NCBI RefSeq assembly: GCF_003991155.1
Contig: NZ_CP031293.1
Length of the DNA stretch: 64,000 nucleotides
Source: Escherichia coli
GTDB taxonomy: Bacteria; Pseudomonadota; Gammaproteobacteria; Enterobacterales; Enterobacteriaceae
Strand: one strand, 5' to 3'
Each line of letters begins with the position of its first letter. Position 1 is the stretch's first letter. The translations under genes and the position numbers were made by a program. Positions 1,264 through 59,575 of this stretch are shown piece by piece. The notes beneath the pieces are model-generated. The model ran no database searches, was not told the origin of the DNA, and saw nothing but the letters and a program-made list of their open reading frames with translations.

Positions 1264-3006
1264 ATGATAAAACCGACGTTTTTACGCCGGGTGGCCATTG
1301 CTGCTCTGCTCTCAGGAAGTTGTTTTAGCGCCGCCGCCGCGCCTCCTGCGCCGCCCGTCTCGTATGGTGTGGAGGAAGATGTCTTCCACCCGGTACGCGC
1401 GAAACAGGGAATGGTAGCGTCTGTGGACGCCACTGCCACTCAGGTGGGGGTGGATATTCTCAAGGAGGGCGGGAATGCCGTTGATGCCGCCGTGGCGGTG
1501 GGCTACGCGCTGGCGGTAACGCATCCGCAGGCAGGGAATCTGGGCGGTGGTGGTTTTATGTTAATCCGCTCGAAAAATGGCAATACCACGGCTATCGATT
1601 TCCGCGAAATGGCACCCGCCAAAGCGACCCGCGATATGTTCCTCGATGATCAGGGCAACCCGGACAGCAAAAAATCACTCACTTCGCATCTGGCTTCCGG
1701 CACACCGGGTACGGTAGCAGGTTTCTCGCTGGCGCTGGATAAATACGGCACCATGCCGCTGAACAAAGTCGTGCAGCCCGCGTTTAAACTGGCACGCGAT
1801 GGTTTTATCGTTAACGACGCGCTGGCTGACGATCTCAAAACCTACGGTAGCGAAGTGTTGCCGAATCACGAAAACAGTAAAGCTATCTTCTGGAAAGAGG
1901 GCGAGCCGCTGAAAAAGGGCGACACGCTGGTGCAGGCGAACCTGGCAAAGAGCCTGGAGATGATTGCTGAAAACGGCCCGGACGAATTCTATAAAGGCAC
2001 GATTGCGGAACAGATCGCCCAGGAGATGCAGAAAAACGGTGGCTTGATCACTAAAGAAGATTTAGCAGCCTATAAAGCGGTCGAACGTACTCCGATAAGC
2101 GGCGATTATCGCGGGTATCAGGTTTACTCCATGCCACCGCCATCCTCCGGCGGGATCCATATCGTACAAATCCTCAATATTCTGGAAAACTTCGATATGA
2201 AGAAATACGGCTTTGGCAGCGCCGATGCGATGCAAATCATGGCAGAAGCGGAGAAATACGCCTACGCCGACCGCTCGGAATATCTTGGCGACCCGGATTT
2301 TGTCAAAGTACCGTGGCAGGCGCTGACCAATAAAGCCTATGCCAAATCTATTGCCGATCAAATTGATATCAATAAAGCGAAGCCATCCAGCGAAATTCGC
2401 CCCGGCAAGCTTGCGCCTTATGAGAGTAATCAAACTACCCATTACTCAGTGGTGGATAAAGACGGCAACGCGGTGGCGGTGACCTATACGCTGAACACCA
2501 CCTTCGGGACGGGCATTGTCGCGGGCGAGAGCGGTATTCTGCTTAATAACCAGATGGATGATTTCTCCGCCAAACCGGGCGTACCGAACGTTTACGGGCT
2601 GGTGGGCGGTGATGCCAACGCGGTTGGGCCGAACAAACGCCCGCTGTCGTCGATGTCACCAACCATTGTGGTGAAAGACGGTAAAACCTGGCTGGTTACC
2701 GGTAGCCCTGGCGGGAGTCGGATTATTACCACCGTGCTGCAAATGGTGGTGAATAGCATCGATTATGGCATGAATGTCGCCGAAGCGACCAATGCACCGC
2801 GTTTCCACCATCAGTGGTTGCCGGACGAGCTGCGTGTCGAAAAAGGGTTTAGCCCGGATACGCTCAAGCTGCTGGAAGCAAAAGGTCAGAAAGTGGCGCT
2901 GAAAGAGGCGATGGGCAGTACACAAAGCATTATGGTTGGGCCGGACGGTGAGTTGTACGGCGCATCTGACCCGCGCTCGGTGGATGATTTAACGGCGGGG
3001 TATTAA
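1264..3006 (+). CDS. ggt: gamma-glutamyltranspeptidase
   Basis: 580-aa product starting MIKPTFLRRVAIAALLSGS with a signal peptide and the conserved GGT core; ATG at 1264 is preceded by GGAGAA; the track's longer ORF from 1237 is an upstream extension. Confidence 0.95.
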   Translation: MIKPTFLRRVAIAALLSGSCFSAAAAPPAPPVSYGVEEDVFHPVRAKQGMVASVDATATQVGVDILKEGGNAVDAAVAVGYALAVTHPQAGNLGGGGFMLIRSKNGNTTAIDFREMAPAKATRDMFLDDQGNPDSKKSLTSHLASGTPGTVAGFSLALDKYGTMPLNKVVQPAFKLARDGFIVNDALADDLKTYGSEVLPNHENSKAIFWKEGEPLKKGDTLVQANLAKSLEMIAENGPDEFYKGTIAEQIAQEMQKNGGLITKEDLAAYKAVERTPISGDYRGYQVYSMPPPSSGGIHIVQILNILENFDMKKYGFGSADAMQIMAEAEKYAYADRSEYLGDPDFVKVPWQALTNKAYAKSIADQIDINKAKPSSEIRPGKLAPYESNQTTHYSVVDKDGNAVAVTYTLNTTFGTGIVAGESGILLNNQMDDFSAKPGVPNVYGLVGGDANAVGPNKRPLSSMSPTIVVKDGKTWLVTGSPGGSRIITTVLQMVVNSIDYGMNVAEATNAPRFHHQWLPDELRVEKGFSPDTLKLLEAKGQKVALKEAMGSTQSIMVGPDGELYGASDPRSVDDLTAGY

Positions 3007-3013
3007 GGTTAGC

Positions 3014-3037
3014 GGCCCTCTTAGTGGGAAGAGGGCC
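3014..3037. terminator. hairpin between the convergent ggt and yrhB 3' ends
   Basis: Perfect 9-bp inverted repeat ggccctctt / aagagggcc with a 6-nt loop; no clear U-tract, so terminator function is inferred from position only. Confidence 0.4.
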
Positions 3038-3043
3038 GTATTG

Positions 3044-3328
3044 TCAGGGCAAGCCGAAGGTAGCCTTTTTTATTTCATAATCCTGTAGATATTCTTCCAG
3101 TGGCTTTGCCGTTCCCAGAGAATGAATTTCACCACTGCCTTTATCAATAATAAAAGGTGCGTTACCAGCTAAGCGCGCGGCCTCATCTCCAGATTCAAGA
3201 AATTATTGTGATTCGAAACAGAAATACCAGCCCTGGCTAAAACGTCCATGCAGAGTGATGACGACAGGGAGATCTGCATCATCAAGGTAATGGTTCGCTT
3301 TCGCGAATGCGTCGTGATAAGTAATCAT
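3044..3328 (-). pseudogene. yrhB: yrhB-like small protein gene interrupted by an in-frame TAA at codon 42
   Basis: Minus-strand ATG at 3328 gives MITYHDAFAKANHYLDDADLPVVITLHGRFSQGWYFCFESQ, then TAA at 3203-3205; the same frame stays open for 52 more codons (FLESGDEAARLAGNAPFIIDKGSGEIHSLGTAKPLEEYLQDYEIKKATFGLP) to a stop at 3044-3046. Total length equals the 94-codon yrhB as I recall it. Confidence 0.5.
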
Positions 3329-3777
3329 AATTATAATAAATATTATTGTTGATCGTTATATTATTATTCTTGCGTTATACTTTGAGAAAAGACGCGTTCA
3401 TCTTCGTCAAAGATATTATTAAATGCTGGTTTTGAAAAAAGTTCATCGGGTAATATACAGTCACGAAATAAGTATCTGCTAATGTTTTGTGATTTCTTTT
3501 TCAGAACGTCGAACGGGATTTTCTTATTTAAGATATCAGAATCTTATGATTCGGGTGAAATTCTAACTAAATCAACATGTCACTAAAATCATCATAGCCA
3601 TTAGCTATTTCGGCTAAAATAGAGATTACATGTCTTCGGTCCATCTCACTTAAGGAGTGTAGTTCCGTTGTAAGTTTTTCCATAGCTTGCATTGCTAAGT
3701 TTCGAACAAGGAATTTTCTGCTGGTAATCTCTAAAAAGATGGCATGGTTTATAATGATTTTTGTTACCTTTTGATTA

Positions 3778-4272
3778 TTATGAACAACTGTCCATGATTT
3801 CGTTTAAGAATGAAGAGAAATCACTAAACGAACTGAATATATTTTCTGTGCCAATATTATCTCTAATTTCAAAAAAGTTATTTTTAATGTCATAAGTAAA
3901 TATTGAAATGCTATCATCCCCGATCACTAACCGTTCTTGTAGATCAGGGTTTATGAAATCATCATTATTTCTATAAAATTCATTTACGGCAAAAAGGTTT
4001 TTAACTGAAGGTTCTGGAATCGAGAGGCTGAATAATCGTAATCCATTAACTTCGAATCCATCCATTGCTCTTAAAAAAGTAAGATAATCAGGTTGATTAT
4101 TAAAGAGAATACTAACTTCATTACATAACTTCTCCAGGCAATTAGTTGGATTAGAATTAAATTTTATTTGGATTATACTTTCAATAAATGATTCCTTGAG
4201 CGGTGCTTCAAATGGATAGTCTAAATCATTCATCATTTTTTTTAATTTATTTATTTGGGTTTTAGTCATCAT
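3778..4272 (-). CDS. hypothetical 164-aa protein; candidate cognate immunity protein for the YhhZ HNH toxin (occupies the yrhA position)
   Basis: ORF immediately downstream of yhhZ on the same strand with a 4-nt ATGA start/stop overlap (4269-4272); AT-rich, acidic, no signal peptide. The immunity role is inferred from synteny and coupling only. Confidence 0.6.
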   Translation of the reverse strand: MMTKTQINKLKKMMNDLDYPFEAPLKESFIESIIQIKFNSNPTNCLEKLCNEVSILFNNQPDYLTFLRAMDGFEVNGLRLFSLSIPEPSVKNLFAVNEFYRNNDDFINPDLQERLVIGDDSISIFTYDIKNNFFEIRDNIGTENIFSSFSDFSSFLNEIMDSCS

Positions 4273-5447
4273 TTTGTGGGTTCCATAATATTTTTCATGG
4301 GAGGATAAATTGAGCCAGATGGAATGGCCCAGGGAGTGATTTTGCTTTCACCTACTAATATTCCCTTAGCTATTCGTGATTGCATGTTAGTAAAAACTTT
4401 ATGATATGGTTCGTTTTCGATTAATACTAAATTTTCGAAATCATTAGTACCACCATCATCTAGAGATAGTTTATGGTGAACATTATAATTTAGAGGAACA
4501 TTGCCCTTTCTCATTCTTAAAAGGTCTTCGGCGTTGAATCTTCCAGATGCTTCGGAGGTTTTTGCAAGTTTGATAAGAAAATTTTTTCTTACAGTTTTAT
4601 TAAACTCCTTTCGTAAGTTAGCTAAGTCTTTTGAAGGTCTCTTAATGTATATTATTTCTATTATGTCTATACCATCAAGAAGTTTTTGTTGACCTCTAAG
4701 TTTGCCTAAGTAACTATTTATTTCTGTATATGTATCAACATTAGAACGCTTTGTTAAAAGAATAGATGCTGTTGCTATCGCTATGCCCGCTGTTTTTTCA
4801 TTTAGTATTTGATCATAGCCTTTTATTGCATCTCCACCCAGTTTTTCCGCAGTATCTCTGAATCCTTCAATGTTCCCATTGTATACGCCACCAGCAGCAA
4901 GTAGCCTGCCAATAGCTTTGCTGTTTAACGTTTTGAAACGATTATTTGTTTGGTTTTTTGAATTTGGTAAAAACAAACAGTTATAATTTTCAGGGAGTGC
5001 CAAATAGCTGAACTCGGTATTTGCGATAATCTGTTGACAGAGGATAAATTCATAACTAACAGTTATTGTTTCTGTATCCAGTTGATTTTCAATGATCTGA
5101 TGATGAATAGCCGATAAAAAAGCGCCTCTTAGTTGTATATAATAATACTTTTCCCATCTACCAAATCTATTTATTCGATAGAAGTCAAATCCCATAAATA
5201 ATTGTTCATTATTGTTAATGGAATTAATAAATAATGGAGTGCTTTTATCAATTAATTTACAAAATGTTATACCATGGAACTGTGAACCAAGCCCCGTATT
5301 AGTAATACTATTTAAGAGTGAGAATGTAAATATTTCATCCTCATGCCCGCTCTGCCAGCGATTACCTGTAGACTCAGAAGTCCCACAACCTGCGGAGATG
5401 CTTCCTTGTTGTTCTCCCGTTACTGTCAGGTAAACAATATTACTCAT
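4269..5447 (-). CDS. yhhZ: Hcp-family protein with a C-terminal HNH nuclease domain (Hcp extended-toxin type, YhhZ)
   Basis: 392 aa; the N-terminal ~160 aa look Hcp1-like (MSNIVYLTVTGEQQGSISAG...), and the C-terminus carries an HNH-like motif (NYNVHHKLSLDDGGTNDFENLVLIENEPYHKVF); markedly AT-rich compared with its neighbours. Confidence 0.8.
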   Translation of the reverse strand: MSNIVYLTVTGEQQGSISAGCGTSESTGNRWQSGHEDEIFTFSLLNSITNTGLGSQFHGITFCKLIDKSTPLFINSINNNEQLFMGFDFYRINRFGRWEKYYYIQLRGAFLSAIHHQIIENQLDTETITVSYEFILCQQIIANTEFSYLALPENYNCLFLPNSKNQTNNRFKTLNSKAIGRLLAAGGVYNGNIEGFRDTAEKLGGDAIKGYDQILNEKTAGIAIATASILLTKRSNVDTYTEINSYLGKLRGQQKLLDGIDIIEIIYIKRPSKDLANLRKEFNKTVRKNFLIKLAKTSEASGRFNAEDLLRMRKGNVPLNYNVHHKLSLDDGGTNDFENLVLIENEPYHKVFTNMQSRIAKGILVGESKITPWAIPSGSIYPPMKNIMEPTK

Positions 5448-5650
5448 CCCTGAAAAGTCCTTTTATGGCATGCTATTTTATTAATGGCACTATTATGCTT
5501 GTTAATTGTTATTTATTTACTCCAGGAAATTGTAGGCGTATATATTAATAATAAAATATTACACTTTAGGACGTAATTATGAGGTAAATCTCAATATATT
5601 TATTGGGCAAATAAATACATTAAAGGAAGATATGCCGATTTTGAATGACG

Positions 5651-5677
5651 CCCTTTTTCCATCTCAGAAAAAGGGCA
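5651..5677 (-). terminator. hairpin just downstream of yhhY
   Basis: Inverted repeat gcccttttt(c) ... gaaaaagggc lying directly 3' of the yhhY stop on the minus strand. Confidence 0.5.
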
Positions 5678-5682
5678 CTATC

Positions 5683-6171
5683 TTATTTCACCCGCGCCAT
5701 ATAATACGCATCGACATATTCACCATTACGTAATGCGTACTTCTTGCCAGTCCCTTCAATCTCAAAGCCGAATTTTTTATAGACCTTAATTGCTGGCGCG
5801 TTATCGACGAACACCGTTAGCTCGATACGATCTACCCGCAACCAGTTGTCGCACATATCAATCATTTCGCGCATCAGGGCGCTGGCGACGCCGCGGTTCT
5901 TCCAGCGAGAGTCGACACAGATACCAAAATCGGCAACATGACTGCGGCGCGGGCGTTGCTGTACATCAATGGTGAGATGACCTACTACGGTTCCATCAAT
6001 ACAGGCGACGAGTTGCTTGATGCCGGGGCGTTCGGCGAGTCGCTCCTGCCACATATAGTCTGAAGGATGAGGCACCTGTAGCGTGTTGTAATACACCTCC
6101 GGCTGGGCGTGAATCTGCCTGATGGCCTCGTAATCCCGTGTTTCTGCGTGGCGTATCACTATCTCACTCAT
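5683..6171 (-). CDS. yhhY: GNAT-family N-acetyltransferase YhhY
   Basis: 162-aa product from the ATG at 6171 (MSEIVIRHAETRDYEAIRQIH...) with an AGGAA ribosome-binding site; acetyltransferase fold motifs; the track's longer ORF is an N-terminal extension. Confidence 0.9.
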   Translation of the reverse strand: MSEIVIRHAETRDYEAIRQIHAQPEVYYNTLQVPHPSDYMWQERLAERPGIKQLVACIDGTVVGHLTIDVQQRPRRSHVADFGICVDSRWKNRGVASALMREMIDMCDNWLRVDRIELTVFVDNAPAIKVYKKFGFEIEGTGKKYALRNGEYVDAYYMARVK

Positions 6172-6293: not shown

Positions 6294-6383
6294 GCGATCA
6301 GGAAGACCCTCGCGGAGAACCTGAAAGCACGACATTGCTCACATTGCTTCCAGTATTACTTAGCCAGCCGGGTGCTGGCTTTT
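6294..6383 (+). ncRNA. ryhB: RyhB small regulatory RNA (Fur-repressed, iron-sparing)
   Basis: Base-for-base match to the RyhB sequence as I recall it (GCGATCAGGAAGACCCTCGCGGAGAACCTGAAAGCACGACATTGCTCACATTGCTTCCAGTATTACTTAGCCAGCCGGGTGCTGGCTTTT), ending in a GC-rich hairpin and U-tract; sits between yhhY and yhhX as in K-12. Confidence 0.95.
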
Positions 6384-6505
6384 TTTTTGATCTTTCGTTT
6401 TCAAATTATCCACGGGAAGTGCTTGTGTTCGTTATGCGCACTCCAGTAGGAACCACGTCCGCTTTGCGCTAAGGTGTAAATAACCCCCTTAAAAAGGACG
6501 AAATC

Positions 6506-11729: not shown

Positions 11730-13826
11730 ATGGAAAAGCACGGAGCTGAATTGCTTTTACAGCGGATGTTAGGAAATACCACCGCTACTTTCAGGGAAGG
11801 GCAATGGGAAGCCATAGATGCAGTGGTTAATCAGCGGCGAAAACTGCTGGTTGTACAGCGCACCGGCTGGGGGAAAAGTGCCGTGTACTTCATCGCCAGT
11901 AAAATCTTCCGCGATCGCGGCGCTGGCCCGACAATTATCATCTCTCCTTTGCTTGCCCTGATGCGTAACCAGGTTGCCGCCGCTGAACGGTTAGGTATTA
12001 CGGCTGAAACGTTGAATTCTACAAACAGGGAAGAATGGCAGCGCATTAGCGATAAGTTGCTGCAAGGTGAGGTCGATTGCTTGCTGGTTTCCCCGGAACG
12101 TTTGGCAAACCAGGACTTTATCGAAACGGTTTTATATCCTATAGCCGATCGTATTGGCTTGCTTGTGGTCGACGAGGCGCACTGCATCTCTGATTGGGGC
12201 CACGATTTTCGCCCGGATTACCGACGTATATTAGATATTTTGCGCCAACTGCCTGCGAATACCCCTGTTCTGGGTACAACCGCGACAGCGAATAACCGTG
12301 TTGTTGAGGATATCCGTCAGCAATTGGGTGACATTGTGATTCAGCGTGGAACGCTGGCTCGCGAAAGTTTGGCGCTTGATGCCTTAGTCTTAGGAGAACA
12401 GTCATCCCGTCTGGCATGGTTAGCAACGGTTATCCCTCAGTTTTCCAAATCGGGAATTGTTTATACCCTGACGACTCGCGATGCTGAACTTGTCGCCGAG
12501 TGGTTAAGGAAAAATGGTATCAGTGCATTTGCTTACTACAGCGGCGTGACTTGTGAAGGCGCGGAAGATTCTAATACTGCCAGGGAATATCTGGAGCAGG
12601 CACTGCTGGCAAATAAAATCAAAGTGCTGGTCGCGACGACGGCATTAGGTATGGGGTTTGATAAACCTGATTTAGGTTTCGTCATTCATTATCAGATGCC
12701 GGGGTCTATTGTCGGTTACTACCAACAGGTGGGGCGTGCCGGGCGTGCTATAGATTCCGCAGTTGGCATATTGCTTTGTGGTGGTGAAGACCGCGCTATT
12801 CATCAATTCTTCCGTGAAAGCGCCTTTCCTGCGGAGGCGCAAATTCATGAAATACTCAACGTACTTAGCGAGAATGACGGTCTTACCCTACGAGGCATTG
12901 AACAACGGACGAATCTTCGTTATGGGCAAATAGAAAAAGCACTGAAATTATTGGTAGCGGAAAATCCATCGCCTGTGGTGTATACCGAGAAATTATGGCG
13001 CAGAACTATCGTCAGTTTTTCTCCTGATCATGAACGAATTAACCATTTGATGAATCAGAGAAAAAGTGAGCTGGCAGACGTTGAAAGCTATATCACGACC
13101 AAGGAGTGCAAAATGCAATTTCTGCGCCGTGCACTCGATGAGCCAAGTGCCGAACGTTGTGGTAAATGTAGCAGTTGTCTTCAACATCCGTTATTGTCGC
13201 CCGACATTGATAGCGGCTTACTCCATGCGGCAAATTTATTTATTAAACACGCTGACCTGCCGTTAAATCTCAATAAACAGGTGGCAGCTGGGGCTTTTAC
13301 GCAATACGGATTTAAAGGGAACTTGCCTGCGGGTTTACAAGGATCTACGGGGCGAATCCTTTCTCGTTGGGGAGATTCCGGGTGGGGAAAGCAGGTAGCA
13401 CAGGAGAAAAAAACGGGGCGCTTAAGTGATGAGCTGGTAGAAGCATGTGCGGAAATGGTTTGCCAACGCTGGAATCCGCATCCTGAACCAACCTGGGTAT
13501 GCTGCGTTCCTTCATTAAGGCACCTCGACCTGGTTCCTGATTTTGCCCGGCGACTGGCGGCGAAACTTGGCTTACCTTTTATTGATGCCATTGAAAAAGT
13601 CGTGGACAATCCACCGCAGAAAATGCAGCAAAACCGTTTTCACCAGTGTCAAAATCTCGACGGGGCGTTTGTGATTACCCCTCCTTTGATGCCAGGTCCG
13701 GCGTTGCTGGTTGACGATATCGTGGATTCTGCATGGACGCTGACAGTTCTGACAGCACTGTTACGCAAGGCAGGTTGCCCGACGGTTTATCCTCTTGCCC
13801 TTGCTTCTACCTCGGTAAAAAATTGA
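11730..13826 (+). CDS. RecQ-like superfamily-2 DNA helicase fused to a C-terminal ComF-type phosphoribosyltransferase-like domain (PsyrT/ShosT-like candidate toxin or defence effector)
   Basis: 698 aa; helicase motifs Walker A (RTGWGKSAVY), DEAH in the RecQ-style context VVDEAHCISDWGHDFRPDY, TATA and QQVGRAGR; a Zn-binding Cys cluster (ERCGKCSSC); the last ~150 aa carry a PRPP-binding-like motif ALLVDDIVDSAWTLTVL resembling gntX/ComF MVIVDDVVTTGST. AGGAGA ribosome-binding site before the ATG. Not part of the K-12 gntU-yhgN junction as I recall it. Confidence 0.8.
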   Translation: MEKHGAELLLQRMLGNTTATFREGQWEAIDAVVNQRRKLLVVQRTGWGKSAVYFIASKIFRDRGAGPTIIISPLLALMRNQVAAAERLGITAETLNSTNREEWQRISDKLLQGEVDCLLVSPERLANQDFIETVLYPIADRIGLLVVDEAHCISDWGHDFRPDYRRILDILRQLPANTPVLGTTATANNRVVEDIRQQLGDIVIQRGTLARESLALDALVLGEQSSRLAWLATVIPQFSKSGIVYTLTTRDAELVAEWLRKNGISAFAYYSGVTCEGAEDSNTAREYLEQALLANKIKVLVATTALGMGFDKPDLGFVIHYQMPGSIVGYYQQVGRAGRAIDSAVGILLCGGEDRAIHQFFRESAFPAEAQIHEILNVLSENDGLTLRGIEQRTNLRYGQIEKALKLLVAENPSPVVYTEKLWRRTIVSFSPDHERINHLMNQRKSELADVESYITTKECKMQFLRRALDEPSAERCGKCSSCLQHPLLSPDIDSGLLHAANLFIKHADLPLNLNKQVAAGAFTQYGFKGNLPAGLQGSTGRILSRWGDSGWGKQVAQEKKTGRLSDELVEACAEMVCQRWNPHPEPTWVCCVPSLRHLDLVPDFARRLAAKLGLPFIDAIEKVVDNPPQKMQQNRFHQCQNLDGAFVITPPLMPGPALLVDDIVDSAWTLTVLTALLRKAGCPTVYPLALASTSVKN

Positions 13827-15028
13827 TGAATCTTTCAGCCAATGCACAAGCGACCCTCCTGCTAACCAGCGATTTTTCTCGCGCGGCGGCGAGTGAGTAT
13901 AAACCTCTTAGTAATAGTGAATGGGGGAAGTTTGCATTATGGCTGAAGCACCAACGTATCAGTCCCGCCGATCTTCTGGTGCCGCAACCGCAAGAGAAAC
14001 TTACAGGCTGGAGCGATCCGCGTATTTCTCAGGAGCGTATTCTTGGCTTGCTGGCGCGTGGCCATAGTCTGGCGTTGGCGGTAGATAAGTGGCAACGCGC
14101 CGGTTTATGGATCTTAACCCGCGGAGATGCCGATTATCCCGTTCGCTTGAAAAACCGATTGCGAACGGATGCACCTCCCGTTTTATTTGGCTGCGGGAAT
14201 AAAGCATTACTGCAAGCGGAAGGTATGGCGATTGTTGGCTCGCGAGATGCTCCGACTGCCGATTTGCGCTATACCCAACAACTGGCAGCGAAACTGGCCC
14301 AACAGGGGATTTGCGTTATCTCTGGTGGTGCGCGAGGTATTGATGAATGTGCAATGGCGTCGGCACTGGAGGCCGGGGGAACTGCCGTTGGCGTATTAGC
14401 TGATAGCTTGTTAAAAACGAGTACGTTAGTGAAATGGCGTGAAGGGCTTATAGCAGGCAACCTGGTGTTGATTTCGCCGTTTTACCCAGAGGTACGTTTC
14501 ACCGTCGGCAATGCGATGGCGCGAAATAAATATATTTATTGCCTTGCTGAAAGCGCAATGGTTGTACGTGCGGGAATGACCGGTGGAACGATAACCGGAG
14601 CGATGGAGGCGTTAAAACATCAGTGGCTGCCTGTGCAGGTTAAACCAAATCAGGATGTGCAATCAGCCAATTCACGATTAGTAGAAAATGGGGCGTCATG
14701 GAGTGCTGAACAGGCTGAGAATGTGACGATCAGACTGCCAGACGTTCCTGGGCTGATGTATGACAGAGCACTCCGTAACGCTCAACCAGAATTGTTTTCG
14801 CTGCACGAAGATGACGCAAATTACGCAGTGATGCCCTCGCATACCCCTGTCGATTTTTATCAACTTTTTGTGGCGGAACTGGCGATCCTTGCAAAGGAAT
14901 CGATAAGTATTGAAAGGCTGGCGTCTTGTACTGGTTTAACCATCGAACAAATTAGTGTGTGGCTGAACCGCGCAGAAGAAGAGGGAAGGGTTATCCGATT
15001 GGGCGAAGGTCATTATCAGTTCAGGTAA
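13826..15028 (+). CDS. DprA/Smf-like Rossmann-fold DNA-processing protein (PsyrA/ShosA-like candidate antitoxin or partner)
   Basis: 400 aa from the ATG at 13826, which overlaps the upstream TGA (TGATG, translational coupling); DprA signature (MAIVGSRDAPTADLRY ... VISGGARGIDECAMASALEAGG) and a C-terminal winged-helix-like tail; the track's longer ORF from 13733 is an in-frame extension into the upstream gene. Confidence 0.8.
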   Translation: MNLSANAQATLLLTSDFSRAAASEYKPLSNSEWGKFALWLKHQRISPADLLVPQPQEKLTGWSDPRISQERILGLLARGHSLALAVDKWQRAGLWILTRGDADYPVRLKNRLRTDAPPVLFGCGNKALLQAEGMAIVGSRDAPTADLRYTQQLAAKLAQQGICVISGGARGIDECAMASALEAGGTAVGVLADSLLKTSTLVKWREGLIAGNLVLISPFYPEVRFTVGNAMARNKYIYCLAESAMVVRAGMTGGTITGAMEALKHQWLPVQVKPNQDVQSANSRLVENGASWSAEQAENVTIRLPDVPGLMYDRALRNAQPELFSLHEDDANYAVMPSHTPVDFYQLFVAELAILAKESISIERLASCTGLTIEQISVWLNRAEEEGRVIRLGEGHYQFR

Positions 15029-58876: not shown

Positions 58877-58904
58877 ACGGGAGGTGAAGGTGCCTCCCGT
58901 TTTT
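58877..58904. terminator. envZ terminator, shared with the convergent antitoxin gene
   Basis: acgggagg tgaaggtg cctcccgt followed by TTTT; the minus-strand antitoxin stop codon (58903-58905) abuts the T-run. Confidence 0.7.
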
Positions 58905-59199
58905 AGATTGTTTTCAATTGATTGATAATGAAAGGATTCGCTTGCAAAAGCAGGAGCAATTTTCGGGGTGCTCCGGTAGGCTGACGGCGTTTGGTTTCCC
59001 AGCTTTTGACCAGGTCATAACTTACCCCTACGGCGACAGCAAAATCTTGCTGACGTAAACCCGTTGCTTCACGGATCGCTTTTACATCGATTTCGCTAAA
59101 AGTATGGACGTGCTCTGGTTCTGGCGTTTCTTCACCCTTTTCGATGCGTACCATTTCTTCTGCGCTGGCAAGAAGATCAGCAAATAATTCATCTTTCAT
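58903..59199 (-). CDS. HigA-like antitoxin (XRE-type helix-turn-helix DNA-binding protein)
   Basis: 98 aa; helix-turn-helix segment (IREATGLRQQDFAVAVGVSYDLVKSWETKRRQPTGAPRKLL) typical of HigA/NadS-type antitoxins; 58 bp downstream of the toxin gene on the same strand. Confidence 0.75.
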   Translation of the reverse strand: MKDELFADLLASAEEMVRIEKGEETPEPEHVHTFSEIDVKAIREATGLRQQDFAVAVGVSYDLVKSWETKRRQPTGAPRKLLLLLQANPFIINQLKTI

Positions 59200-59257
59200 C
59201 TGTTTTCAATGCCTCCGTTGACATTTCGGCCATGGTGGAATTTGTGGAGCTTCAACA

Positions 59258-59575
59258 TTAAAGCAGCTTCTCGGACAATAGTTTCAATGCCTTTCTTTGT
59301 TCTTCTGTTAAATCATCCTGTTCATTTTTAGGATAAATCAACGCCAGATAAATTCGGCCATTGCGTGTTACGTTGTAATAAATTATCCGAATGCCACCCC
59401 GTTTCCCCATTCCAGAACGGTTCCAGCGAATTTTTCTAAAACTGCCTGTGCCTGCGATAATGTCACCGGCAGTGGGATCTTGAATGAGTAGTTCCTGAAA
59501 AGCCCGGAACTCATCATCAGGTAGCAATAACTGGCGGCGTTTGCTAAATCCTTGTAGTTCAATAAAGGTGAACAT
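59258..59575 (-). CDS. HigB-like toxin (RelE/ParE superfamily mRNA interferase)
   Basis: 105 aa with the GTG-x-R-K-I-R ... G-K-R-G-G-x-R-I-I-Y-Y ... L-x-x-I-Y-x-K-N-E motif (GSFRKIRWNRSGMGKRGGIRIIYY, LALIYPKNEQDDLT) that I associate with Vibrio-type HigB toxins; toxin-first gene order is characteristic of HigBA. Absent from the K-12 envZ-pckA junction as I recall it. Confidence 0.75.
   Translation of the reverse strand: MFTFIELQGFSKRRQLLLPDDEFRAFQELLIQDPTAGDIIAGTGSFRKIRWNRSGMGKRGGIRIIYYNVTRNGRIYLALIYPKNEQDDLTEEQRKALKLLSEKLL

Follow-up and report, generated by a model that had tools for sequence, protein, structure and literature searches.

The yhhZ-yrhA pair in the AT-rich ggt-yhhY islet of an Escherichia coli strain without T6SS-2: an orthologue of Hcp-ET1/ETI1

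Introduction

Hcp-ET1 and its partner ETI1 have been described for the E. coli strains STEC004, O104:H4 C227-11 and 55989 (Ma et al. 2017, Virulence 8:1189, as given in PMC6730261 and PMC6099711). Reviews report both DNA degradation and DNase-dependent killing for Hcp-ET1 (PMC6730261). [quoted passage not shown] The HNH domain itself was termed 'degenerate' by Blondel et al. 2009.

Here, we relate this system to the gene pair yhhZ-yrhA within a 64-kb stretch of an E. coli chromosome, to which we refer as the window. RefSeq annotation was taken from the matching record of E. coli 2016C-3878, which is 100% identical to the window. A preceding sequence-only reading of the same DNA had proposed an orphan Hcp-HNH effector with a downstream immunity candidate in a region of foreign origin, and we report below how its individual claims compare with homology searches, structure models and genome comparisons.

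Results

Identity with Hcp-ET1/ETI1

The pair consists of the following two genes.

4269..5447, minus strand: yhhZ (RefSeq 'tssD', Hcp1 family T6SS effector), 392 aa, Hcp-ET1 orthologue; from the open reading frame and WP_061092824.1
3778..4272, minus strand: yrhA, intact with 164 aa, putative cognate immunity gene (ETI1 orthologue); from WP_000988505.1, NF038335, the 55989 match and the gene neighbourhood

Both open reading frames are thus present where the sequence-only reading had placed them. They share 4 nt, i.e., the ATG of yrhA overlaps the TGA of yhhZ (ATGA), as that reading had likewise stated. In strain 55989, the pair likewise lies between yhhY and ggt. YhhZ is 97.4% identical to the 55989 protein with 10 residue differences, none of which is catalytic, and YrhA is 96.3% identical with 6 residue differences. 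The 55989 YhhZ sequence bears the source name 'Hcp protein' (A0A1C9CJD7), while the exact sequence of the 55989 YrhA is named 'HNHc DNase immunity protein'. Based on the reviews, the preprint, the 55989 locus and these source names, we identify the yhhZ-yrhA pair by sequence as Hcp-ET1/ETI1, which has already been characterised experimentally. The function of the pair is thus already published under this name, and the window contains no new type of system.

Domain architecture of YhhZ

YhhZ divides into three parts, the last of which contains the predicted catalytic motif.

5007..5447, minus strand: Hcp/TssD tube-protein domain, residues 1-147; from TIGR03344, Pfam and PDB matches
4758..5006, minus strand: conserved linker before the variable toxin, residues 148-230; from the similarity break at about residue 229 and GRLLAAGG at residues 180-187
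4272..4757, minus strand: predicted DNase toxin domain of the HNH (His-Me finger) type at the C-terminus, residues 231-392; from homologues, the AF2 model, Foldseek and profile matches
4401..4478, minus strand: predicted HNH catalytic motif H324-H325...D330-D331-G333-N335...N339...H349; from column invariance

The Hcp-like N-terminus that had been read from the sequence is well supported by profiles. Residues 1-147 match NCBIfam TIGR03344 with an E-value of 2.1e-32 and 112.4 bits (cut-off 58.9), and the N-terminus matches Pfam T6SS_HCP PF05638 with 1.9e-10. Among PDB entries, Hcp3 (3he1) is matched with 2e-11, and the matches to Hcp3, Hcp and Hcp1 span 2e-11 to 5e-9. Beyond this domain, YhhZ extends for 245 aa. 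It thereby shows the sequence features of an Hcp-ET protein, i.e., an Hcp/TssD N-terminus, an extension of more than 60 aa with a toxin domain, and a putative cognate immunity gene directly downstream. In many genomes, RefSeq calls YhhZ a 'type VI secretion system tube protein TssD', which is misleading for this gene.

The linker marks the position where related proteins diverge. Citrobacter and Salmonella proteins in which Hcp is fused to another toxin resemble YhhZ up to about residue 229. The motif GRLLAAGG is invariant in the alignment of 16 full-length YhhZ homologues and is also found in DUF8093 fusions as well as in Hcp fusions with other toxins.

The HNH domain

The sequence-only reading had also noted a C-terminal HNH motif (HHK...GG.N...N). 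It is located at residues 323-350 (VHHKLSLDDGGTNDFENLVLIENEPYHK), and the catalytic-motif columns given above are invariant in the 16 full-length homologues as well as in 45 diverse C-terminal domains. In particular, the residues H324, H325, N335, N339 and H349, which cover the general-base His, the structural Asn and the metal-binding His/Asn expected of an HNH nuclease, are conserved without exception in both alignments. The domain is matched by 582 representative clusters (E<=1e-3) and occupies a C-terminal position in all of them. The same HNH clade is also found C-terminally in LXG and RHS-like proteins; for ten long HNH-carrying proteins, NCBIfam scans named LysM repeats as the only N-terminal partners.

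The AF2 model of the domain has a pLDDT of 90.3 and a pTM of 0.84, and it shows the beta-beta-alpha-metal arrangement with strands 90-94 and 109-113 followed by the helix 114-129. Best Foldseek matches of the model are the DNases of pyocins S2, AP41 and S8 and of colicins E7, E9 and E2 (prob 1.0), and the model superposes on the ColE7, ColE9 and pyocin S2 DNases with an rmsd of ~2.5 A over ~80 residues. At the sequence level, the HNH profile matches Cas8f-HNH (6.7e-5) and ColE7 (0.04), and the single-sequence Pfam HNH match of YhhZ is weak (E 0.013). Taking conservation and model together, the C-terminal domain of YhhZ is a colicin/pyocin-like DNase with intact catalytic residues, for which activity is predicted.

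YrhA as the probable immunity protein

YrhA matches the NCBIfam family NF038335 ('YrhA family', YPO0640_fam) with 127.7 bits (cut-off 55), and the alignment is of near full length, i.e., residues 4-163 are placed on profile positions 2-149 of 150. A YrhA homologue is encoded directly downstream of the HNH domain in every locus examined, whatever the delivery domain. The carriers in these loci are the Hcp fusions of E. coli and C. koseri, the DUF8093 fusions found at six further sites, and a single LXG protein (a T7SS toxin); the YrhA profile matches the 155-aa protein encoded next to the latter with an E-value of 2.5e-9. Across 12 loci, YrhA covaries with the toxin domain. Where Hcp at the yhhY-ggt site carries other toxin domains, Imm35 or an 86-aa gene follows downstream instead. 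Such a change of the downstream gene along with the toxin domain is the signature of an immunity gene. We infer from this gene-neighbourhood covariation that YrhA is the cognate immunity protein, the role for which the 164-aa protein had been put forward before and which is also the one named for its 55989 orthologue.

YrhA itself has no match in Pfam even at E 10. In a 13-member YrhA alignment, two members match SUKH_6 and one matches SUKH_5 weakly (E<=1e-3, best 1.5e-4), the SMI1_KNR4 match is likewise weak with 0.03, and UniRef names some members of the YrhA family 'SMI1/KNR4 family'. The AF2 model from a 20-sequence alignment reached a pLDDT of 49.7, and Foldseek returned nothing but noise for it. 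In the PDB, sequence as well as profile searches (queries: YrhA, two distant homologues, two alignments) yielded chance matches only, namely to antibodies, EF-hand proteins and OMPLA. Membership of the SUKH superfamily is therefore only suggested by the matches of the family members.

Without the IS1 of K-12, yrhA had been expected to be possibly intact here. It is indeed of full length: the islet holds no IS1, whereas the K-12 IS1 sits in the 3' end of yrhA and leads to a 138-aa product.

The islet between ggt and yhhY

The pair is part of a larger islet, whose remaining parts are listed below.

3007..5683, no strand assigned: AT-rich variable islet with yhhZ, yrhA, the truncated yrhD, an immunity relic and the yrhB pseudogene; from G+C content and homology borders
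5448..5683, minus strand: AT-rich promoter region upstream of yhhZ, reaching to the terminator hairpin of yhhY; from the sequence
3567..3692, minus strand: yrhD, truncated, 41-aa ORF (51 aa in K-12 and 55989); RefSeq partial pseudogene
3367..3525, minus strand: degraded relic of a second immunity-type gene; from tblastn with the 86-aa C. freundii gene
3044..3328, minus strand: yrhB, putative orphan Imm35-family immunity gene, a pseudogene here; internal stop at 3203-3205

The islet comprises 2677 bp and fills the whole ggt-yhhY gap. Its G+C content is 0.337 compared to 0.521 for the rest of the window, which makes 3007-5683 the window's lowest-G+C 2.7-kb stretch and bears out the AT-richness that had been noted for 3.3-5.7 kb relative to the flanks. 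In comparison with the islet-free strain Ecol_AZ162, homology ends at 3006 and restarts at 5684, such that the islet ends coincide with the stop codons of ggt and yhhY. The borders carry no direct or inverted repeats, the only repeats there being 14-17-nt AT-rich chance matches. Promoter-like sites are no more common than in shuffled sequence, and within the islet Rfam yields nothing but a sub-threshold snoRNA match that we attribute to chance. A terminator-like hairpin of yhhY is located at 5650-5676.

For K-12, promoters of yhhZ have been reported, with no terminator through yrhA (PMC12428005). Furthermore, K-12 yhhZ and yrhA are listed as H-NS-bound and of foreign origin (PMC3661553; H-NS binding in Table 1), so that the horizontal origin suspected from the base composition is documented for the K-12 genes, as is H-NS binding, in line with the suspected silencing. 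In our strain, the islet is probably bound by H-NS and for the most part silent.

Downstream of yrhA, the islet contains what by sequence are orphan immunity genes, i.e., yrhB (Imm35) and the relic of the 86-aa gene. The intact YrhB of 55989 matches Pfam Imm35 (PF15567) with an E-value of 4.6e-23, and in Citrobacter an Imm35 gene directly follows an Hcp-Gln_amidase fusion at the same site, i.e., it takes the position after a polymorphic toxin. The relic has lost its start codon and is truncated after about 53 codons. It was detected by tblastn: the 86-aa gene of C. freundii, which lies immediately behind the Hcp-417 toxin there, matches it over 53 aa with 49% identity (E 1e-13). No yrhD homologue was detected in the Citrobacter or Enterobacter loci. 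For annotation, we suggest renaming yrhA as cognate DNase immunity protein and yrhB as orphan Imm35 immunity gene.

Absence of T6SS-2 and distribution of the islet

RefSeq lists no T6SS structural genes in the 64-kb window, in agreement with the sequence-only reading, which had called the pair orphan on these grounds. This label holds on the level of the genome with regard to T6SS-2. When compared with 55989, the aspV site is empty in this strain, i.e., yafV directly follows aspV, and T6SS-2 tssC is absent from this chromosome when searched with a chimeric query. The reported delivery system of Hcp-ET1 is therefore not available to fire YhhZ in this strain.

Among complete E. coli genomes, the islet is found at >=80% coverage in 3757/5426 (~69%) and is missing from ~31%, while T6SS-2 tssC is found in 2192 (~40%). 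Thus, many strains, including this one, hold the effector without its delivery system, and at least 1565 complete genomes keep the pair in the absence of T6SS-2. Separately, the 3' kilobase of T6SS-2 tssM has a single, unexplained match in this chromosome, which further searches did not place.

Within E. coli (vs 55989), dN/dS is 0.90 for yhhZ and 0.69 for yrhA, values that are based on as few as 13 and 8 substitutions, respectively. These high ratios are compatible with relaxed constraint. Relative to C. koseri, dS is saturated.

Discussion

Preferred interpretation

We are highly confident that the pair is best explained as an Hcp-ET1/ETI1 orthologue in a strain without T6SS-2, in which the islet is likely silent, immunity is plausibly retained, and the locus represents one allele of a cassette hot spot. 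YhhZ consists of an Hcp tube domain (1-147), a linker up to about residue 230 and an HNH DNase (231-392). Judging from reports on the orthologue, the Hcp domain would allow YhhZ of strains with T6SS-2 to enter neighbouring cells together with the fired tube, and the HNH domain would then degrade the DNA of the target cell. YrhA, presumably co-translated via the ATGA overlap, would protect both the producing cell and its kin from the DNase. For the strain studied here, the retained benefit would most plausibly be protection from Hcp-ET1-armed neighbours. The gap between yhhY and ggt would be a hot spot of cassette exchange, with the islet as one of its alleles.

We lean, if only slightly, towards a broader joint reading, which combines cassette swapping at a ggt-yhhY hot spot with a trail of orphan immunity genes, YrhA as universal partner and selection for immunity only. 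Here, Escherichia, Citrobacter and Salmonella may share a chromosomally fixed hot spot in the ggt-yhhY gap, where the exchange of toxin/immunity cassettes appears to take place directly behind the GRLLAAGG linker on either an Hcp or a DUF8093 carrier. The K-12 yrhB (Imm35) and the yrhD-proximal relic would be remnants left by former Hcp toxins. Wherever the one HNH clade occurs in type VI or type VII (LXG) toxins, YrhA would be its universal partner, and YrhA would represent a divergent SUKH-like protein not yet in Pfam. If this holds, the retention in at least 1565 T6SS-2-negative genomes reflects selection for immunity only. Independent of this, yhhZ-yrhA is one of few toxin systems in relatives of E. 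coli K-12.

Alternative explanations

The lack of T6SS-2 in this strain also suits the idea that the pair is a decaying, functionless relic which drifts neutrally towards pseudogenes since the loss of T6SS-2. Its neighbours yrhB and yrhD are pseudogenes already, the further immunity relic is degraded, K-12 yrhA carries an IS1, about 31% of the genomes have no islet, and the dN/dS of yhhZ vs 55989 is about 0.9. We nevertheless consider such decay unlikely: both ORFs are of full length with all invariant catalytic residues intact, the dN/dS value depends on 13 substitutions, and the at least 1565 T6SS-2-negative genomes that keep the pair argue for some retained benefit. This wide retention without T6SS-2, together with the bicistronic, translationally coupled toxin-antidote layout, might alternatively point to an intracellular addiction (toxin-antitoxin) or abortive-infection module in strains without T6SS rather than to a secreted weapon. 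A spontaneous deletion of yhhZ-yrhA, however, arose in a K-12 topA mutant and was tolerated, i.e., the pair is not addictive in K-12. Furthermore, the gene order is toxin-first, as is typical of polymorphic toxins, and the N-terminus of YhhZ is a bona fide Hcp domain, for which we know of no intracellular role, such that we regard an addiction module as highly improbable.

With regard to the individual proteins, YhhZ could be a plain structural tube protein (TssD) with a non-catalytic C-terminal extension, as suggested by its RefSeq product name in many genomes and the 'degenerate' HNH of Blondel et al. 2009. We give this next to no credence, given that the 245-residue extension holds a confidently modelled HNH fold with all catalytic residues conserved, that yhhZ lies outside any T6SS cluster beside an immunity-type partner of its own, and that reviews report DNase-dependent killing by Hcp-ET1. 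Small genes beside T6SS effectors sometimes encode chaperones, and the fold of YrhA was not obtained from its AF2 model (pLDDT only 49.7), so YrhA might be an adaptor or chaperone that loads YhhZ into the T6SS rather than an immunity protein. On the other hand, YrhA goes with the toxin domain and not with the delivery domain: the same HNH domain precedes it on Hcp, DUF8093 and LXG (type VII) carriers, and it is replaced where the toxin domain is replaced. The YrhA family also shows weak matches to SUKH families, SUKH proteins being immunity proteins, and the source name reads 'HNHc DNase immunity protein'; a loading function thus has very little probability in our view.

Comparison with known systems

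In relation to Hcp-ET1/ETI1, the pair of the window agrees in locus, Hcp N-terminus, predicted HNH-DNase C-terminus and downstream immunity gene, and differs in that the strain has no T6SS-2, i.e., the reported delivery system. The Citrobacter and Salmonella Hcp fusions follow the same plan as YhhZ, with Hcp first and a variable toxin thereafter. Their alleles at this site are 65-76% identical to YhhZ over residues 1 to about 229 before the toxin switches, and their toxin domains and immunity families differ from those of yhhZ-yrhA, e.g., Gln_amidase with Imm35.

The DNases of colicins E7/E9 and pyocins S2/AP41 are the best structural matches and share the beta-beta-alpha-metal HNH fold and the catalytic motif, although the match is limited to ~80 aligned residues with TM 0.35-0.45 and 17-29% identity. 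Each of these toxins, in the case of YhhZ presumably, is neutralised via a tightly linked immunity gene. Delivery differs, i.e., via the T6SS tube for YhhZ and via receptor-mediated import for colicins and pyocins. The immunity proteins differ as well: YrhA (164 aa, mixed alpha and beta, possibly SUKH-like) is unrelated to the four-helix Im proteins. Like YrhA, members of the SUKH (SMI1/KNR4) immunity superfamily are small cytoplasmic proteins encoded directly after a nuclease toxin domain.

Finally, among the Rhs, CdiA and LXG polymorphic toxins, LXG and RHS-like proteins share the HNH clade of YhhZ at their C-terminus. As in the arrays of these toxins, the active cassette is followed by a collection of orphan immunity genes, here yrhB and the 86-aa relic. 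In contrast to them, the carrier of the toxin domain is Hcp (or DUF8093), and the junction is marked by GRLLAAGG instead of VENN or PxxxxDPxGL.

Locus and AT-rich islet

The window was annotated from the RefSeq record NZ_CP029747.1 (E. coli 2016C-3878 chromosome), which matches it with 100% identity in reverse orientation. The observation made from the bare sequence is confirmed in every detail, i.e., both minus-strand ORFs are present, yhhZ (4269-5447, 392 aa) and, directly 3' of it, yrhA (3778-4272, 164 aa), with a four-base ATGA overlap. They lie in an islet of 2677 bp, whose ends, the stop codons of ggt (3006) and yhhY (5684), are the homology limits relative to the islet-free Ecol_AZ162, where ggt and yhhY are only 60 bp apart. 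The AT-richness that had been noted by eye corresponds to a G+C content of 0.337 compared to 0.521 in the remaining window, and the islet is the lowest-G+C stretch of that size within the 64 kb. The proposed horizontal origin and H-NS silencing agree with data for K-12, where 'promoter islands' inside yhhZ and yrhA are tabulated as H-NS-bound and of foreign origin (PMC3661553). Unlike in K-12, where an IS1 within the 3' end of yrhA leaves a 138-aa product, the islet of the window strain contains no IS1; across the whole window, type VI secretion structural genes are likewise missing from the RefSeq annotation, both as noted from the bare sequence. Between yhhY and yhhX, the known small RNA gene RyhB is found at 6323-6387 on the plus strand (Rfam 83 bits, gathering score 55).

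Domain architecture of YhhZ

The Hcp-like N-terminus is recovered by the curated Hcp model TIGR03344, which matches residues 1-147 with 112 bits (cut-off 58.9), and by solved Hcp proteins (E 2e-11 to 5e-9). In the homologue search, many similarly long proteins from Citrobacter and Salmonella are 65-76% identical to YhhZ over residues 1 to ~229 and then switch to C-termini unrelated to its own, e.g., Gln_amidase (PF15644) or colicin D (PF11429). Full-length homology is limited to fewer proteins, among them some from C. koseri and C. freundii. Searched alone, the C-terminal 161 residues match 582 clusters at E<=1e-3 among 1.84 billion representatives, always at the extreme C-terminus and behind very different N-termini (LXG, RHS-like, DUF8093, Hcp). 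Judged from these homologies, the distribution is the behaviour of a polymorphic-toxin module.

The predicted nuclease motif appears complete. H324, H325, D330, D331, G333, N335, N339, H349 and Q356 are invariant among 16 YhhZ orthologues, and the H-H...N...N...H set is so among 45 distant domains as well. The AlphaFold2 model of the domain, built from the 45-domain alignment, is confident (pLDDT 90.3, pTM 0.84), and the solved structures it matches best are without exception DNase domains, from pyocins S2, AP41 and S8 and colicins E7, E9 and E2 (prob 1.0, rmsd ~2.5 A over ~80 residues). The sequence profile matches HNH chains as well (Cas8f-HNH 6.7e-5, ColE7 0.04). Taken together, conservation, model and profile matches indicate that the HNH case is understated by the weak single-sequence Pfam match (E 0.013) and by the older label 'degenerate HNH' (PMC2907695). 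That is, the C-terminus is predicted to be an intact colicin-like HNH nuclease domain, in line with the sequence-only reading.

Rare gene calls of 552-556 aa from metagenome or read assemblies (P0001, P0003, P0005) join YhhZ and YrhA in frame through the ATGA overlap (...PHKMMTKTQ...); these fusions could be real one-base A-run indels or assembly errors.

YrhA as the probable cognate immunity protein

The curated 'YrhA family' model recognises YrhA with 127.7 bits (cut-off 55), and no Pfam family matches it; its predicted structure reaches a pLDDT of only 49.7, and no solved-structure relatives are detectable by sequence. Single members of its alignment match SUKH_6 and SUKH_5 at ~1.5e-4 and SMI1_KNR4 at 0.03, and some sources name members 'SMI1/KNR4 family', such that YrhA is likely a divergent SUKH-type immunity protein.

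Its role is judged from genetic evidence, namely its genomic neighbourhood. In all loci examined, a YrhA homologue directly follows every protein ending in this HNH domain, with profile scores of 187-212 bits for the re-scored loci. The carrier is Hcp in E. coli (window, 55989, K-12) and C. koseri, and DUF8093 in six loci at different chromosomal sites (Enterobacter, Pantoea, Leclercia and metagenomic contigs); at one locus with an LXG (type VII secretion) toxin, the 155-aa neighbour matches the YrhA profile with E 2.5e-9. The yhhY-ggt site is occupied in C. portucalensis by Hcp-Gln_amidase with an Imm35 gene behind it, and in C. freundii by an Hcp with yet another C-terminus that precedes an 86-aa gene. 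One could regard YrhA as a loading chaperone; this is argued against by a partner gene that changes with the toxin domain and stays constant across carriers. The small downstream gene thus tracks the toxin domain rather than the carrier, a hallmark of immunity genes, and the nomination of the 164-aa ORF as immunity candidate gains genetic support.

The DUF8093 carriers (loci L015, L016, L017, L019, L023, L024, L025) are ~380-aa proteins (L023 295 aa) that join an N-terminal DUF8093 (PF26362) and the same GRLLAAGG linker as in YhhZ to the same HNH toxin. At L015, a 91-aa Hcp fragment is located 2 kb downstream.

Orphan immunity genes and other toxin loci

Two further genes of the islet are of immunity type:

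3044-3328, minus strand: yrhB, orphan Imm35 immunity gene, here a pseudogene with an internal stop at 3203-3205
3367-3525, minus strand: unannotated immunity-type relic between yrhD and yrhB, homologue of the C. freundii 86-aa gene

YrhB has in the past been described as chaperone-like; its intact orthologue belongs to the Imm35 immunity proteins (E 4.6e-23), i.e., to the same family as the gene following the Citrobacter Hcp-Gln_amidase. The relic shares 49% identity over 53 aa with the C. freundii gene (E 1e-13); it is truncated and has lost its start codon. Also truncated in the window strain is yrhD, for which no relatives are detectable in the other loci compared. The GRLLAAGG linker is common to Hcp and DUF8093 fusions, including those with other toxins. 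Together with the yrhB assignment and the relic, this suggests that the islet may be a hot spot of cassette exchange at which orphan immunity genes have been left behind, a pattern well known among polymorphic toxins.

Elsewhere in the window, an insertion between gntU and yhgN (11730-15028, plus strand) encodes a 698-aa helicase of the RecQ family and a DprA-like protein of 431 aa. As the two score 1062 bits (PsyrT) and 669 bits (PsyrA) against the PADLOC models, they form a PsyrTA toxin-antitoxin/defence pair, which 55989 lacks, yhgN and gntU being direct neighbours there. RefSeq further annotates a RelE/ParE-family toxin gene and a NadS-family gene at ~58878-59550 on the minus strand between pckA and envZ.

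Availability of the delivery system

The sequence-only reading had proposed to look for a type VI secretion cluster in the rest of the genome. T6SS-2 is positioned beside tRNA-Asp (aspV) within the yaf genes, where 55989 has the full cluster; in 2016C-3878, yafV directly follows aspV and this site is empty. A chimeric query of islet anchor and tssC matched the chromosome at a single place, and T6SS-2 tssC is therefore absent from it. With 1 kb of the tssM 3' end added, one extra match place appears in NZ_CP029747.1, outside the window. T6SS-2 remnants are common, since the tssM piece occurs in 2647 genomes of the collection but tssC in only 2192. The islet itself is found in 3757 of 5426 complete genomes, such that at least 1565 carry the effector without its reported delivery system.

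Most likely, the pair is silent and undeployable in this strain, and the most plausible benefit of its retention would be immunity against armed neighbours. The pair may instead be decaying neutrally, as the within-species dN/dS is high for both genes, although it is based on only 13 (yhhZ) and 8 (yrhA) substitutions.

Relation to Hcp-ET1/ETI1

The description of YhhZ as an 'evolved Hcp' dates from 2009 (PMC2907695), and in the His-Me finger classification the protein defines group 32 (PMC5714182). Hcp-ET1 of STEC004, O104:H4 C227-11 and 55989 is reviewed as an Hcp-HNH DNase that kills neighbouring bacteria via T6SS-2 and has ETI1 as its neutralising partner (PMC6730261, PMC6099711, PMC9990079), and an O22:H8 strain carries the same orphan pair with 99% identity to that of 55989 (preprint 10.1101/2024.03.05.583533). 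The 55989 locus has yhhZ-yrhA-yrhD-yrhB all intact, and its exact sequences are found in UniProt under adjacent entries, A0A1C9CJD7 with the name 'Hcp protein' and A0A1C9CJE0 with the name 'HNHc DNase immunity protein'. Given this published record and the 55989 match, the interpretation as an orphan Hcp-HNH effector-immunity pair is supported and our finding is a re-discovery of an already characterised pair: compared to Hcp-ET1/ETI1 of 55989, the window proteins differ at 10/392 and 6/164 positions, none of them catalytic.
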